This document shows positions 35,389-39,433 of a stretch of DNA of 41,862 bases, in pieces (position 1 is the first letter of the stretch; each line of letters starts with the position of its first letter). Location: IMG/VR virus record IMGVR_UViG_3300045988_057496. One strand, 5' to 3'. The notes below the pieces were generated by a model. That model was given only the letters and a program-made list of their open reading frames with translations, did not search any database and was not told where the DNA came from. The DNA is from a virus. The position numbers were made by a program, and so were the translations under genes.

Positions 35389-35712
35389 TTACAGTAGCTT
35401 GTAGTGCTCAGCCAACAAAAACCGGACGTATGCCGGGCAGTCGCGCTCGCCCAAACACCACCCCTGCACCGTGCGCAGAGGGATGCCTGCCCGTTTTGCA
35501 AATGCGGTCTGTGACAGACCGGTACGGTCTACCAACTCCCGCATGGACAGGTGCGCCAGTTCCCAGATGGTGGAAAGCCTTTTTTTCTCGGCGTCCAGAT
35601 CAAGACACCCGTCGGCATCATCCGGGATGCTGAGAGTGACACTGTTCAAAAAGATTTCTTTAACGGCCTTTGGGTCAGATGCCATGACGAAAAGTTCAGC
35701 TGCATTATACAT
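35389..35712 (-). CDS. XRE-type HTH regulator of the cargo island
   Basis: 107 aa. The C-terminal LSMRELVDRTGLSQTAFAKRAGIPLRTVQGWCLGERDCPAYV is an HTH. Confidence 0.75.
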   Translation of the reverse strand: MYNAAELFVMASDPKAVKEIFLNSVTLSIPDDADGCLDLDAEKKRLSTIWELAHLSMRELVDRTGLSQTAFAKRAGIPLRTVQGWCLGERDCPAYVRFLLAEHYKLL

Positions 35713-35781
35713 TGCAATTCTCCTTTTTTGATTGATAAATTCCCCGGGTGGTGTTTGCGCATCACTCGGGGATTTTTTATT

Positions 35782-35970
35782 TTATACGTTAACCCAAGCG
35801 GTATCAACCAGCTCACCGTACTGATATTTTGCCACCAGCATCTTTTTGCTGGATTCGTCCCACTTGGTAGCCTTGTATGCATACTGCTTACCAGTAACCC
35901 AACCGTCCATGCCGCAGATCACATCGCGGGCATTCCAAATCTTTTCGATCATGTTCTTGGAAAGTTTCAT
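35782..35970 (-). CDS. Small hypothetical protein (62 aa), first gene of the regulator operon
   Basis: ATG 35970 lies 7 nt after GGAGGT. The track ORF extending to 36156 is upstream read-through across the promoter. Confidence 0.55.
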   Translation of the reverse strand: MKLSKNMIEKIWNARDVICGMDGWVTGKQYAYKATKWDESSKKMLVAKYQYGELVDTAWVNV

Positions 35971-36016
35971 TTTAGTTACCTCCAGTTGATTGTGTGTGGT
36001 GTCTTTCACTGTCTTT

Positions 36017-36078
36017 ATTATACGCTCATTGAGCGTATTTGTCAAGGCTCTTTGCAAAATTTTATGCTCATTGAGTAC
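36017..36078 (-). promoter_or_regulatory. Consensus promoter TTGACA-17-TATAAT with palindromic operators
   Basis: On the minus strand, TTGACA is at 36045-36040 and TATAAT at 36022-36017. The spacer contains the perfect palindrome ACGCTCAtTGAGCGT (36022-36036). A second, degenerate copy ATGCTCAtTGAGTAC is at 36064-36078, 42 bp centre to centre. Confidence 0.65.
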
Positions 36079-36128
36079 ATTTCTTTGCGCCTGCGCGGCC
36101 CCGCTGCCGTGCGGGCGCTTTTTTATTT

Positions 36129-36160
36129 TTGGCACTCGTTTGGCATTCGTTGGCACTCAC
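36129..36160 (+). repeat. Three tandem TTGGCAYTC(g/a) repeats (10-11 bp period) upstream of the cargo operon
   Basis: ttggcactcg / tttggcattcg / ttggcactcac. This is a probable regulator array. The first pair also resembles a sigma-54 -24/-12 element (TGGCAC-N5-TgGCA). Confidence 0.5.
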
Positions 36161-36204
36161 CGCGGTTTAAAAAAGTACACTGGGTGCAAAGGGAGGGGGG
36201 TGCC

Positions 36205-36582
36205 ATGTGGCACAAGTTTAACCCGAACCCGCGCGGGAGCAGCGTCGGGGACTGCGTAGTGCGGGCGGTATCTGCGGCCACCGGTCAGAGCTGGGAGCAA
36301 GCGTATATTGCGCTGGCGCTCACCGGCTACGCCCTCGGCGATATGCCCAGCGCCAACCGCACATGGGGCGCGTACCTCCAAAAGCAGGGTTACAAGCGCC
36401 GCATGGTGGAGGCAGACTGCACCACCTGTTACACCGTGGCAGATTTTGCCCGGGAGTACCCGCGCGGCGTGTATGTACTGGGCTGCTCCGGCCACGTCCT
36501 GACCGTGATCGACGGCGTGTGGTGGGACAGCTGGGACAGTGGCGCAGAATGCCCGATTTACTACTGGTATAAGGAGGAGTAA
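36205..36582 (+). CDS. Small protein with Cys/His motifs (possible papain-fold cysteine peptidase)
   Basis: 125 aa, ATG 36205 after GGGAGGGGGG. GDCVVRAVSAATGQSWEQAY and CSGHVLTVIDGVWWDSWDSG suggest a Cys-His dyad. The track ORF from 35551 is read-through. Confidence 0.6.
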   Translation: MWHKFNPNPRGSSVGDCVVRAVSAATGQSWEQAYIALALTGYALGDMPSANRTWGAYLQKQGYKRRMVEADCTTCYTVADFAREYPRGVYVLGCSGHVLTVIDGVWWDSWDSGAECPIYYWYKEE

Positions 36583-36585
36583 ACG

Positions 36586-37283: not shown

Positions 37284-37325
37284 CAAGCATAAAACTCATT
37301 CAAAACACACGAAAGGAGTGCAAAA

Positions 37326-38102
37326 ATGTCTCTTTCTTCCGATTCTGCGGTTCTGACCATGCCCGTTCAGCCCGCAAACACCAACGGCGGCAACGGCTTT
37401 GGCTTTGGCAATGATGGCGCATGGTGGATCATCATCCTGTTCCTGTTCGCCTTCTGCGGCGGCTGGGGCGGCAACTGGGGCGGCAATGGCAACACCGGTG
37501 CCGGTGTCGTTGACGGCTACGTCCTGACCTCCGATTTTGCCAACATCGAGCGCAAGATGGATGGTATCAACAACGGCATGTGTGATGGCTTCTACCAGCA
37601 GGCGCAGCTTGTCAACGGCGTGCAGCAGACCGTGAATAACGGCTTTATGTCCGCAGAGATCAGCCGTGCAAACCAGCAGGCGGCGTTCATGCAGCAGCTG
37701 TTTGCCATGCAGATGCAGCAGCAGGAGTGCTGCTGCGAGAACCGCTCTGCCATTCAGGGCGTCAACTACAATATGGCTACCCAGTCCTGCGAGACCCGGA
37801 ACACGGTGCAGAACACCACCCGGGACATCATCGACAACCAGAACCAGAACGCCCGCGCCATCCTTGACGCCCTGACCGCACAGCGCATCGAGGCAAAGGA
37901 CGCAAAGATCGCTGAGCAGGGTCAGCAGCTGTTCGCAGCACAGCTTGCGGCATCTCAGGCAGCCCAGAACGAAACGCTCAAGGCCTACATGAGCGGTCAG
38001 CTGGCCTACTACAATCCGCGCCCTGTACCTGCATTCCCGGTTTCTGCACCTTACCAGTACGGTAACTGCGGCACCGGTTGCGGCTGCGGCAGCTGCGCAT
38101 AA
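37326..38102 (+). CDS. Membrane-anchored Q-rich coiled-coil protein with Cys clusters, unknown function
   Basis: 258 aa, SD GAAAGGAG. The N-terminus is Gly/Trp-rich with one TM helix (GNDGAWWIIILFLFAFCGGWGGNWGG). There is an internal ECCCEN motif, and the protein ends GNCGTGCGCGSCA. Confidence 0.7.
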   Translation: MSLSSDSAVLTMPVQPANTNGGNGFGFGNDGAWWIIILFLFAFCGGWGGNWGGNGNTGAGVVDGYVLTSDFANIERKMDGINNGMCDGFYQQAQLVNGVQQTVNNGFMSAEISRANQQAAFMQQLFAMQMQQQECCCENRSAIQGVNYNMATQSCETRNTVQNTTRDIIDNQNQNARAILDALTAQRIEAKDAKIAEQGQQLFAAQLAASQAAQNETLKAYMSGQLAYYNPRPVPAFPVSAPYQYGNCGTGCGCGSCA

Positions 38103-38194
38103 CCGAATCGCGACAGCTTTTTGAGTGGCTGTTTCCAAAATGGAAATTCCCACATCAAAATGTTCAGCCCCTGAGCTGATTTTGCAAACTAGAG

Positions 38195-38221
38195 CGCCGG
38201 GGCAAAAGTCCCGGCGTTTTT
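38195..38221 (+). terminator. Intrinsic terminator inside the cargo island
   Basis: CGCCGGG-gcaaaagt-CCCGGCG followed by TTTTT. Confidence 0.6.
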
Positions 38222-38241
38222 CTATGAAAGGAGCCGATAAA

Positions 38242-38664
38242 ATGGCCGAATTTTCTAATTCTAACATCGTCATCGTGGCGGCGGGTGAAAATCTTCCCCT
38301 GACCGAGACCGCGGTGAAAGCCCCTGCCTGCATCATGCACCGTGAGGGCAGCGGCCTTGTGACCCTGCGGGGTCTGACCAATCAATGCAAAGCGCGCTTC
38401 AAGGTAAGCTTTGGCGGCAATATCGCCATTCCCACCGGCGGCACTGTGGGACCCATTTCCGTGGCGCTGGCTGTCGGCGGTGAGTCGCTGACCAGTGCGA
38501 CCGCCATTGTCACCCCGGCGGCAGTCGAAAATTACTTCAACGTTTTCGTGGCCGCTTTCATCGAGGTGCCGCGCGGCTGCTGCGTGACCGTGGCGGTTAA
38601 AAACACCAGTACGCAGGCAGTCAGCATTGCAAACAGCAATCTGATTGTTGAGCGGGTAGCATAA
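38242..38664 (+). CDS. BclA C-terminal-domain-like (C1q/TNF-type jelly-roll) protein without collagen repeats
   Basis: 140 aa, ATG 38242 after AAAGGAG. The alternating beta pattern (RFKVSFGGNIAIPTGGTVGPISVALAVGGESL...VTVAVKNTS...) and the ending NSNLIVERVA resemble the BclA C-terminal domain, which ends ..SIIIEKVA. That comparison is from memory. Confidence 0.6.
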   Translation: MAEFSNSNIVIVAAGENLPLTETAVKAPACIMHREGSGLVTLRGLTNQCKARFKVSFGGNIAIPTGGTVGPISVALAVGGESLTSATAIVTPAAVENYFNVFVAAFIEVPRGCCVTVAVKNTSTQAVSIANSNLIVERVA

Positions 38665-38680
38665 GAAAGGAGATAAAGTC

Positions 38681-39076
38681 ATGCTGGATAAACTGAATCA
38701 TCTGAAGGACGAAATGTGCGAAGAGCTCATGGAGCTGACCAACAAAAAGAACCGCTCCCCGGGTGATGTTGAGATGATCGGCGAGATCGTGGACATCATT
38801 CTGGACATCCACCGCATCGAGGATTACTGCGAGGGCGGCGAGTACAGCCGTGCGGGCGAGTGGGAAGCTGATATGCGCGGCAACTACGGACGTACCGAAA
38901 ACTATAACCGGGGCAATAGCTACGCAAACCGAGGCCGTCACTATGTGCGCGGGCACTACTCCCGCACGGATGGCCGTGAGCGCATGATCTCTGACATCGA
39001 GGACATGATGCAGGAGGCCACCGGCGCAGAGCGTGACGCCTACAAGCGGGCCGCCGACATCTTGCGCAACGCATAA
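38681..39076 (+). CDS. Helical protein with an Arg/Tyr/Gly/Asn-rich middle segment, unknown function
   Basis: 131 aa, SD AAGGAG. The middle segment reads RGNYGRTENYNRGNSYANRGRHYVRGHYSR. Confidence 0.6.
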   Translation: MLDKLNHLKDEMCEELMELTNKKNRSPGDVEMIGEIVDIILDIHRIEDYCEGGEYSRAGEWEADMRGNYGRTENYNRGNSYANRGRHYVRGHYSRTDGRERMISDIEDMMQEATGAERDAYKRAADILRNA

Positions 39077-39094
39077 GGGAGGAGGGCGGCAAGT

Positions 39095-39433
39095 ATGGAC
39101 ATCGACGAGATCAACACCCATATTCACAAGCTGAAATGCGGTTCAACGGACTGGCAGAGCGTGGAAAAGCTTGCCGCCCTCTGCACTGTGCGAAATGAGT
39201 TGAGCGAAGCGGAAAGCCGGGAAAACAGCCCCGCTCCGCGGCCTGAACCAGTCATGCAGATGGAGTATTCCACAAGACCGCAAGAACAGCAGAGCGAATT
39301 TGTAGAGGCTGCAAGCGCTGTGCCGTTCAGCGGGTTGATGGAGGTACTGGACAGACACATGAACGCAATAAAGCTGGTGTACCCGAAAGAGTATGAGCTT
39401 GTTATCAGAAAAATCAAAAATCTGTTAGACTAA
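39095..39433 (+). CDS. Hypothetical protein (112 aa)
   Basis: SD GGGAGGAGG. It is the last gene of the cargo operon. Confidence 0.55.
   Translation: MDIDEINTHIHKLKCGSTDWQSVEKLAALCTVRNELSEAESRENSPAPRPEPVMQMEYSTRPQEQQSEFVEAASAVPFSGLMEVLDRHMNAIKLVYPKEYELVIRKIKNLLD

Follow-up and report, generated by a model that had tools for sequence, protein, structure and literature searches.

Introduction

The Bacillus cereus group's ExsFA/BxpB-BclA-ExsY/CotY exosporium (structures 7r1m, 8d02, 9h3d, 1wck and 9h38) is the closest structural parallel to a gene cassette of viral origin that we describe here, located on the plus strand at positions 36205-39433 of IMG/VR record IMGVR_UViG_3300045988_057496. This stretch of DNA, analysed over its whole length of 41,862 nucleotides (nt), is referred to below as the window, and coordinates given without a locus label are positions in it. 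The seven plus-strand genes are named g3 to g9, two minus-strand genes ahead of them g1 and g2, and a small gene further upstream g0. As in the exosporium, the cassette encodes a stand-alone jelly-roll protein of the TNF/C1q type with about 140 amino acids (aa), g7, which reaches template-modelling (TM) scores of 0.67-0.78 to ExsFA/BxpB and the C-terminal domains (CTDs) of BclA, and which is encoded beside cysteine-rich and low-complexity partners, all lacking signal peptides. Unlike the exosporium proteins, g7 shows an identity of only 8-14% with them and has neither a Pfam BclA_C match nor a collagen-like region; furthermore, the cassette is without an ExsY/CotY or CsxA homologue, is borne by phages, occurs also in non-sporulating hosts and encodes a g6 protein with a predicted membrane anchor.

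Morons, such as bor and lom of lambda and those of HK97, resemble the cassette in its apparent autonomy, with putative own terminators and promoter, and in its placement at variable hot spots of the late region, often beside the integrase gene and attachment site (int/att). In contrast to morons, the cassette comprises 5-7 collinear genes under strong purifying selection, together with an internal RNA and an apparently dedicated helix-turn-helix (HTH) gene; it is also present in a phage seen only in lytic growth and lies, in one lineage, inside a late operon without terminators. The com-mom operon of phage Mu with its activators Mor/C offers an analogy in regulation only: common to both are a terminal, 'very late' operon, a putative small HTH activator, a promoter without a good -35 element and an RNA hairpin at the ribosome-binding site (RBS) of a downstream gene, whereas the two are not related in sequence, the Mor family is touched by only one of the 32 g0-like proteins, and the products are unrelated to Mom. 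The RNA between g6 and g7 may be compared with cis-regulatory leader RNAs that contain a terminator (riboswitches, protein-dependent attenuators, antiterminator RNAs of the HK022 put type), as it has two conserved stems, a terminator stem and a U-run before an RBS, with covariation in all three stems; unlike them, it matches no Rfam family and lies within the operon, not in a 5' leader. Moreover, few of its unpaired nucleotides are conserved and it is therefore without an obvious ligand pocket.

It should be added that g3-g7 are clear members of PHROGs families 3754, 21718, 22984, 16490 and 20016, correspondingly, which PHROGs does not record as one cassette. In the literature on prophage-borne exosporium/BclA-like modules and TNF-like phage decoration proteins no description of the cassette was found. 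No described system combines these parts, and the association of an exosporium-type TNF-fold protein, a predicted minimal papain-like enzyme, a Cys-rich membrane protein and an RNA absent from Rfam has not been seen previously.

A portable, collinear operon in phages of Clostridia

The comparison gives good support to the view that segment 36205-39433 represents a single copy of a portable operon, which phages infecting Clostridia of gut and rumen carry very commonly; among phages of gut Clostridia it is present in thousands. Two sets of sequences were used. The first consisted of 82 loci (labelled L) from species-representative genomes and phage records, in which genes were detected with tblastn, and the second of IMG/VR contigs matched by a DNA pattern made from the RNA element alone, which returned at least 120 contigs, 120 of them being examined for neighbouring genes. 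Across the 82 loci the one-strand order g3-g4-g5-g6-g7-g8 was maintained, individual genes being present in 47-82 of them (by tblastn, g3 in 57, g4 in 57, g5 in 51, g6 in 72, g7 in 82 and g8 in 47). Searches with jackhmmer lifted several of these counts and detected g9 in 34 open reading frames (ORFs) across the loci; greedy ORF calling misses genes in loci of high GC content. The same gene order was found in 83-107 of the 120 viral contigs, depending on the gene, where tblastn revealed a g8 homologue in 97 and a g9 homologue in 61. The core order is g4-g5-g6-RNA-g7-g8, with g3 usually before and g9 usually after it. The initial annotation of this DNA had regarded the seven genes, together with g1 and g2, as a local cargo island of nine genes and had suggested a check of their co-occurrence. 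The seven plus-strand genes do co-occur, collinearly, in the 82 loci and 120 viral contigs and form a widespread portable cassette; the island of nine had to be abandoned, as the g1/g2 pair is not conserved.

At 90% identity the homologues of g7 form about 7,974 clusters, a number that falls to 616 when the limit is set at 50%; those of g6 form more than 7,800 clusters. Many are situated on phage-sized contigs of 40-45 kb. Proteins of the cassette are 45-79% identical in related loci, whereas the tail and holin proteins of the window have almost no detectable homologue in the loci sharing the cassette, and its lysin is matched at only about 30%, in a few of these loci. It follows that the cassette can move horizontally and is much more strongly constrained than its surroundings. 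Of the gene sets still unexplained in phages of the dominant gut Firmicutes it is one of the more widespread and, being collinear and far better conserved than the surrounding tail and lysis genes, must do something important and self-contained. Its role, once known, would help to annotate many gut prophages better, a large share of the total, and a new strategy of late infection or transmission could come to light.

The unit can be written as g0 - hairpin - [g3] g4 g5 g6 - RNA - g7 g8 [g9]. These limits follow from locus L031, where the HTH gene and the hairpin directly precede g4 and g3 is placed further upstream. Distant variants (L041, L046, L054 and L062) have g4-like and g5-like genes, g6, g7 and a g8-like gene, then an ImmA-like gene, and are without g3.

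In line with the initial annotation, none of the genes belongs to a known virion, replication or lysis family, as far as Pfam, NCBIfam and PDB sequence searches reach. Scans of all nine proteins (g1-g9) against Pfam and NCBIfam gave only weak HTH matches, and Pfam did not match divergent variants of g8, g6, g4 and g5 either. Sequence and profile searches of the PDB with g3, g4, g6 and g7 returned no significant match. In PHROGs, scanned with the nine proteins, g3-g7 were assigned to families of 'unknown function' with E values between 1e-22 and 1e-61. PADLOC-DB had no meaningful match to g3-g9, the sole one (g5, E 0.02, 12 bits) being treated as noise.

The intergenic gaps of the cassette are insertion hot spots. 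A C5 DNA methyltransferase is inserted after the RNA and before g7 in L031 (8825-9940), an annotated endonuclease stands between g5 and g6 in Dulem virus 33 (L001, 9560-10111, minus strand), and Butyrivibrio phage Ceridwen (L089, 9449-10312) has a 287-aa HTH-containing gene between g7 and g8. An ORF of about 65 aa separates the RNA element from g7 in L009, L017, L026 and L063. In many loci the upstream hairpin is separated from g3 by an extra short ORF, predicted helical, of 45-68 aa and belonging to one of two sequence types, for example L001 8354-8506, L014 7828-8019, L067 1278-1445 and L089 6878-7084; the window is without it.

Position in phage genomes and hosts

The cassette follows the lysis genes in the window, in MT835551 (L002), in Dulem virus 33 and in L083 (prophage on 67-104-kb contigs). 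Other positions were identified as well: in L076, a prophage of Butyrivibrio sp., it lies between tail-fibre genes and a GH25 lysin, with no terminator until after the lysin, and in L028-L034 (Lachnospiraceae bacterium JLR.KK009 and relatives) between the genes for the portal and a minor head protein and those for the scaffold and adaptor. In Ceridwen, g0, g3-g7, the inserted 287-aa gene, g8 and g9 come right after the lysin. No integrase is annotated in the stretch of about 18 kb examined in this phage; an excisionase is not reported in the Ceridwen paper, and only lytic growth of the phage was observed. Thus, the slot for lysogenic conversion at the int/attP end, to which the initial annotation had tied the cassette, is only one of at least three positions, the others being the head cluster (L031) and the tail-lysin region (L076); the head-cluster, tail-lysin and Ceridwen placements argue against a function restricted to lysogens. 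An integrase was mapped at most 4 kb downstream of the cassette in at least 13 of 57 loci and was found in 25 of the 120 viral contigs; the mapping of integrases and lysins round the cassette (jackhmmer seeds) has low sensitivity, and its figures represent a lower bound only. Matches of g7 in BFVD are on contigs labelled Siphoviridae, Podoviridae and Myoviridae.

Reliable hosts are Clostridia, namely Oscillospiraceae, Lachnospiraceae, Ruminococcus, Acutalibacteraceae and Butyrivibrio; further hosts include Butyrivibrio fibrisolvens, Butyrivibrio sp., Lachnospira and Mollicutes-like bins. Butyrivibrio and Lachnospira are not known to form spores, which argues against a role at the spore surface. 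Cultured carriers are available: Ceridwen on B. fibrisolvens DSM 3071, Lachnospiraceae bacterium JLR.KK009 and Lachnospira intestinalis CLA-AA-H89B.

Proteins encoded by the cassette

The most conserved protein of the cassette is g7 (38242-38664, plus strand; 140 aa; phrog_20016), a stand-alone jelly-roll of the TNF/C1q/BclA-C type with a conserved GCC motif. Its AlphaFold2 (AF2) model is all-beta with 10 strands and has a mean predicted local distance difference test (pLDDT) value of 90.6. Foldseek placed the F-BclA CTD, ExsFA, BxpB and the BclA CTD at the top of the PDB matches (probability 1.00, E 5e-7 to 1e-5; TM scores as given above), followed by 4-1BBL, EDA and C1QL1, whereas in BFVD the matches were stand-alone proteins of about 135 aa from uncultured gut phages, with TM 0.8-0.9. 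The likeness to BclA-C and C1q-TNF, initially proposed from the strand pattern and C-terminus, is consequently borne out at the level of fold by the structure prediction that had been suggested as a check; membership of these families by sequence is not, since Pfam and NCBIfam gave no match at E <= 0.1 and phmmer against PDB sequences nothing relevant. Among the best 150 of the 616 representatives of the 50%-identity clusters, which were looked at, g7 family members are stand-alone proteins of about 70-205 aa, mostly about 140 aa, and neither g7 nor these 150 have a collagen-like or repeat region ahead of the domain.

The 258-aa protein g6 (37326-38102, plus strand; phrog_16490 at 5e-45) is predicted to be a bitopic membrane protein. 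Its Gly/Trp-rich transmembrane segment at residues 32-48 is the sole hydrophobic segment of transmembrane grade among the cassette proteins; after it come a coiled coil rich in Gln, in which a CCC motif is invariant, then a stretch rich in Pro and a tail rich in Cys, Gly and Asn. The window g6 has 10 Cys, and tails in the family have 6-17. The best match among PDB sequences (E 0.048) was coiled-coil noise. This layout, with the hydrophobic segment at 32-48 and the 10 Cys, agrees with the initial description of a protein with a Gly/Trp-rich transmembrane N-terminus, a long Q-rich coiled coil and a CCCEN motif, and the other claims on composition of the cassette proteins hold as well. No signal peptide was found in any cassette protein.

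Gene g3 (36205-36582, plus strand) encodes a predicted minimal papain-like Cys-His-Asp enzyme of 125 aa (phrog_3754). In its AF2 model (pLDDT 96.4), C17 is the first residue of helix 17-26, and residues D16, C17, H97, D108 and D111 are invariant in 53 homologues; the model thus suggests the arrangement of papain-like clan CA, a Cys at the N-terminus of a helix together with His and Asp. Foldseek matches were mostly papain-like hydrolases and all sub-significant, Josephin-2 being the best (E 0.12, TM 0.51), with AvrPphB, staphopain, PaTox, TssM, Tae4 and Tse1 among the others; Pfam had no match to g3. A Tgl-like transglutaminase acting on Q-rich partners was considered and rejected, as no transglutaminase occurs among the best 50 Foldseek matches. 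Relatives of g3 occur by themselves in phages of unrelated kinds (Bacillus Tsamsa-like, Geobacillus GBK2, Lak megaphages, Pseudomonas K5/K8 and Mx1 phages). Accordingly, g3 is an enzyme of phages in general, and its tie to the cassette is loose.

The remaining products are small. Gene g4 (36586-37035, plus strand; 149 aa; phrog_21718 at 2e-36) has, according to the family alignment, a variable P/Q/Y-rich N-terminus, a conserved beta domain of about 50 aa with consensus IWVQGE..AK.Y.V.PG..V.L.DS....IY.KS.D.SG.P and a C-terminal helix. The g5 protein (37038-37262, plus strand; phrog_22984 at 1.8e-22) is helical, with 74 aa and 23% Gln. In g8 (38681-39076, plus strand; 131 aa; weak match to phrog_28802, 8e-6) two helical ends flank an Arg/Gly/Tyr/Ser-rich disordered centre with repeats of GYSR type, and g9 (39095-39433, plus strand), the frequent but not universal last gene, encodes a helical acidic protein of 112 aa.

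A structured RNA between g6 and g7

The spacer between g6 and g7 contains a previously undescribed structured RNA, absent from Rfam. In the window it extends over 38116-38225 (plus strand) and consists of three stems, P1 (38119-38160), P2 (38164-38179) and P3 (38191-38220), followed by a U-run; its fold has a z-score of -4.6, P1 is unusually long and nested, and the RBS of g7 comes directly after the element. The internal terminator initially annotated at 38195-38221 is real as regards hairpin and U-run (38191-38221, plus strand) and is actually stem P3 of this RNA. Across the related loci the spacer measures about 110-130 nt and is highly structured in about 45 of them, where P3 and the U-run are directly followed by the RBS of the next gene.

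A structure-blind MAFFT alignment showed compensatory changes in all 14 predicted pairs of P2 and P3. A covariance model (CM) of the three stems, R1, was built from eight sequences and searched over 1.2 Mb; about 55 loci each yielded a single strong copy, on the plus strand and invariably adjoining g6 or g7, and there were weaker minus-strand matches that overlap the palindromic P3. The window copy scored 39.1 bits (E 5e-7) at 38153-38225, and the best-scoring representative is that of L014 at 9901-9983. Covariation was further assessed on 42 sequences aligned to the CM, and in this alignment, which leans towards the model structure, 97.8% of cells were paired versus 80.9% in shuffles, both sides had changed in 20 of 22 pairs, and compensatory cells numbered 155 versus 41 in shuffles; slid controls gave 35-57% pairing. 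The DNA pattern made from the RNA alone provided further evidence, since 104 of the 120 IMG/VR contigs carry the match on the same strand between g6 and g7 homologues, and 6 further matches adjoin a g6 or g7 homologue at the end of the stored stretch. In loci with an inserted gene, the RNA either remains beside g6 (L031) or is found immediately before the following ORF. A conserved RNA structure ending in an intrinsic-terminator-like stem beside the RBS of the next gene, the hallmark of a cis-regulatory RNA, is what these loci contain.

Rfam gave no match at E <= 1 in the window spacer, and in L014, at E <= 10, two matches far below threshold (19 and 16 bits versus gathering scores of 70 and 55), treated as noise. 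Two other readings of the spacer were rejected: for a small ORF from an invariant AUG between P1 and P2, neither reading frame nor stop codon is conserved, and the covariation of P2 is that of an RNA stem; an antiterminator pairing of the P2 3' arm with the P3 5' arm has no covariation support, its 4-bp pairing occurring in 92.7% of cells versus 91.2% in shuffles.

Upstream region and regulation

In most loci a small HTH gene is positioned directly upstream of the cassette. The window counterpart, g0 (34742-34909, plus strand), encodes a 55-aa HTH protein resembling sigma-70 region 4 and is the conserved upstream partner of the cassette; its Sigma70_r4_2 score (24.1 bits) is slightly below the 25.7-bit cut-off, whereas the homologue in L083 matches GerE with 39.5 bits versus a cut-off of 23.5. 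When 32 upstream small proteins, picked by eye, were scanned with Pfam, 15 matched Sigma70_r4, 9 Sigma70_r4_2, 6 GerE and 5 Sigma70_ECF. It is probable that g0 is the dedicated regulator of the cassette. In L083 the HTH gene abuts a holin-like gene with a gap of 2 nt and in Ceridwen it overlaps its neighbour, and g0 is therefore presumably made late.

Promoters and phased repeats of the related loci were read by eye and by consensus. Between HTH gene and cassette there are one or two GC-rich hairpins with T-runs, followed in most loci by an extended -10 element similar to TGnTATAAT; the module promoters of relatives look like extended -10 promoters of the sigma-A type, and inspection by eye showed no -10 motif for sigma-E or sigma-K at the cassette promoters. 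The window has a corresponding element, overlooked in the initial annotation: a GC-rich hairpin (36087-36118) with a 13-bp stem and a T-run, altogether a terminator-like structure at 36087-36124 (plus strand), lies between the palindromes described below and the repeats, and corresponds to the terminator hairpin directly upstream of the cassette in most related phages. It is followed by the three TTGGCAYTC direct repeats already reported (36129-36158, plus strand; spacing 11 and 10 bp), a motif for which about 1.3 copies are expected by chance in the whole 42 kb. Related loci have analogous phased repeats of other sequences, e.g. GACAG, and such repeats are candidate binding sites of the HTH activator. 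A sigma-54 reading of TGGCAC-N5-TGGCA within the repeats was dropped, as relatives have other phased repeats together with an extended -10.

At its other end the operon is closed by a hairpin at 39496-39548 (plus strand; 16-bp stem, 16-nt loop, T-rich tail, z -4.8) immediately before the tRNA-derived core of attP, in agreement with the stem-loop terminator proposed there initially. By consensus reading, own promoter and terminators are present in the window and most loci and absent in L076, so that the moron-like autonomy attributed to the block would extend to most phages carrying the unit. All nine ORFs were located where the initial annotation had placed them, each start codon being preceded by a GGAG-type Shine-Dalgarno site.

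In the window, g0 is separated from the cassette by four inserted elements, namely a gene resembling a tRNA, a DUF3800-VIII RNA, the g1/g2 pair and the operators of this pair. Gene g1 (35389-35712, minus strand) encodes an XRE-like HTH protein of 107 aa and is a local, non-conserved addition, as tblastn found homologues in 4 of 82 loci and 7 of 120 viral contigs. Its assignment to XRE-type HTH proteins is supported by phrog_25567 (5e-10), while the HTH_3 match is weak, at 21 bits versus a 23-bit cut-off. The co-transcribed g2 (35782-35970, minus strand; 62 aa) matches no family in Pfam or PHROGs, and tblastn found a homologue in none of the related loci or viral contigs. The XRE switch initially held to be the block's own is thus not that of the cassette, whose conserved, probable regulator is g0; g1/g2 with palindromic operators are a local extra layer in few relatives. 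The promoter of the pair (g2-g1; 36045-36017, minus strand), TTGACA-17-TATAAT, agrees with the consensus at 12 of 12 positions, and its spacer is filled, as initially described, by a perfect 9+1+9 palindrome, ATACGCTCA-T-TGAGCGTAT, at 36020-36038, unique in the window with 0 chance matches expected. The second copy claimed 42 bp away exists as a related site (36059-36082) but is degenerate, with 79% identity over 24 nt, a shared 10-nt core and no match within 3 mismatches. Presumably, palindrome and degenerate site are the operators of g1.

Possible function of the cassette

Our best guess, a tentative one that we would place somewhat below an even chance, is that the cassette directs a late, activator-driven, membrane-anchored protein assembly serving the phage. 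In such a scheme g0, packed in the late lysis or head operon, would be synthesised late, bind the phased repeats past the insulating terminator (in the window, the three TTGGCAYTC copies) and activate a promoter that in most relatives has an extended -10 and no -35 element, making the cassette a 'very late' unit independent of read-through. The RNA between g6 and g7, with its terminator abutting the g7 RBS, would probably set or gate the ratio of g7-g9 to g3-g6. As all products lack signal peptides, the assembly would be cytoplasmic, with g6 as its membrane anchor in the form of a coiled-coil oligomer; by analogy with ExsFA/BxpB, a g7 trimer may dock peptide tails of the Q-, Y- or Cys-rich g4, g5, g6 and g8, and g3 may process one of the partner proteins. 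The outcome would be a membrane-associated assembly late in infection, for example for lysis-associated handling of the envelope or for protection or retention of progeny, and would not be a lysogenic-conversion trait. We infer each of these parts, i.e. late activator-dependent expression, assembly anchored by g6, g7 as a hub and RNA tuning of g7-g9. Several points weigh against them. The late timing is deduced from gene packing and the nature of g0, which, judged by its sequence, could equally be a repressor. A terminator with an own promoter is also typical of a prophage-expressed moron, and the three insertion positions are what we take to be known hot spots of morons and anti-defence genes. 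The window has no extended -10 and adds an XRE-controlled divergent promoter, so that its regulation may differ from that of relatives. Furthermore, the hub role of g7 is drawn by analogy from structures of about 10% identity, and g3, often absent or displaced, may not belong functionally.

A more far-reaching idea, which we consider improbable, is that the products form an exosporium-like self-assembling material, made in bulk very late, that coats, embeds or tethers progeny virions or the lysing envelope. The TNF-fold trimer would be the hub, the Cys-rich coiled coil would provide the membrane anchor and the Gln/Tyr/Arg-rich proteins the partners, with papain-like trimming, and the HTH activator and the internal regulatory RNA would drive bulk production, as a 'very late' phage programme of a new kind. 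If true, the material would be functionally analogous to viral occlusion or spore-coat matrices, improving survival or transmission of phages in the gut; independently of the material, the three-stem RNA would represent a new class of phage cis-regulator.

The most serious rival to the late assembly, in our opinion a possible though unlikely one, is a moron expressed from the prophage: an own sigma-A-type promoter would be active in the lysogen, g6 would mediate superinfection exclusion, abortive infection or defence, and g0 and g1 would act as repressor or modulator. The insulating terminator and extended -10 upstream, the terminator downstream, the place next to int/att in many temperate relatives (at least 13 of 57 loci and 25 of 120 viral contigs) and at known hot spots of accessory genes, the self-contained nature and portability across unrelated phage backbones, and the autoregulated-looking XRE gene with operators beside the window cassette are all in concordance with it. 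However, Ceridwen, observed in lytic growth only, with no integrase in about 18 kb and no excisionase reported, has the complete cassette, and in L076 the cassette is embedded in a late operon without terminators. Moreover, PADLOC gave no matches, of the seven proteins six are cytoplasmic and lack a secretion signal that would take them to the surface, and the strict collinearity and strong conservation of 5-7 genes are unlike the fast turnover of exclusion and anti-defence genes.

Rather unlikely, too, is that the proteins are accessory parts of the virion, g7 trimers forming a decoration, fibre or knob and the others serving as adaptors or chaperones or, in the case of g6, in ejection or membrane insertion. 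The co-orientation of the cassette with morphogenesis clusters, at times inside them, would fit, as would the missing signal peptides, the frequency of TNF-like folds in phage fibre tips and knobs (9k09, 9eul and 8ke9 in the PDB; fibritin and tail-fibre entries in BFVD) and the strong conservation of g7, like that of a structural protein; yet for a receptor-binding tip g7 is far too conserved, and the usual place of the cassette is after the lysis genes, behind terminators. A component of the particle should also co-evolve with the particle, whereas the cassette is common to phages whose tail and lysis proteins have almost no similarity, and g7 occurs on contigs labelled Siphoviridae, Podoviridae and Myoviridae. 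Very improbable, in our judgement, is remodelling of the spore surface, the initially favoured possibility, in which expression in the mother cell would add an exosporium- or coat-like layer to the host spore. It draws on the best structural matches of g7, the exosporium proteins ExsFA/BxpB, BclA-C and F-BclA, on signal-less Cys-rich and Gln/Tyr/Gly-rich proteins resembling those of coat and exosporium in composition, on an adjacent regulator partly of the GerE family, on the clostridial hosts and on the prophage in L035, which abuts a truncated sporulation-type sigma gene. This resemblance is one of fold, and viruses have the TNF fold just as commonly; by sequence, the proteins do not belong to BclA_C, DUF3992 or any other spore family. 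The hosts include Butyrivibrio fibrisolvens, Butyrivibrio sp. and Lachnospira, which are not known to form spores, as well as Mollicutes-like bins, Ceridwen was seen growing only lytically, and the promoters read as the sigma-A extended -10 type, with no sigma-E or sigma-K -10 seen by eye. The remaining probability belongs to something unforeseen.

Surroundings of the cassette

Between g0 and g1 the window carries two RNA elements. A tRNA-like gene at 35114-35186 (plus strand; Rfam tRNA, 47 bits) has no anticodon assignable by ARAGORN; its anticodon loop reads as 6 nt, or 8 nt if the closing pair opens (UUACAC), and it has putative extended -10 promoters of its own just past g0, with promoter-like sites at 34887-34915 and about 35048-35056. 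It could be a suppressor, frameshift-type or decoy tRNA. Ordinary phage tRNA genes are located elsewhere on the plus strand: Trp-CCA (14061-14136), Met-CAT (14726-14801) and Thr-TGT (22217-22293). A full-length match to the Rfam DUF3800-VIII RNA (RF03075; 35317-35380, plus strand; 72.6 bits versus a gathering score of 40.2) separates the tRNA-like gene from the 3' end of g1; it is a long hairpin with a T-run, and copies of 81-90% identity are present in other faecal phage contigs.

Downstream of the closing hairpin, positions 39555-39610 are the reverse complement of a tRNA 3' half (T-arm, acceptor stem and CCA), probably of tRNA-Gly as judged by these parts. Several faecal phage contigs, unrelated to one another, have an identical core of 46 nt, and use of a common integration site is suggested by this. 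The segment is consistent with attP, as a tyrosine integrase is encoded next to it (39657-40793). The integrase gene is directly preceded, on the same strand, by one for a 195-aa protein with an N-terminal XRE/CI-type HTH (40797-41384, minus strand), likely the main phage repressor and distinct from g1.

At the edge of the L035 prophage, in Lachnospira intestinalis CLA-AA-H89B, an N-terminally truncated ORF for a sporulation-type sigma factor was identified (7427-7915, minus strand; GEIKRYLRDSNPIRVSRSLRD, SigG/SigF-like). By analogy with skin-type elements, this prophage may interrupt a sporulation sigma gene.

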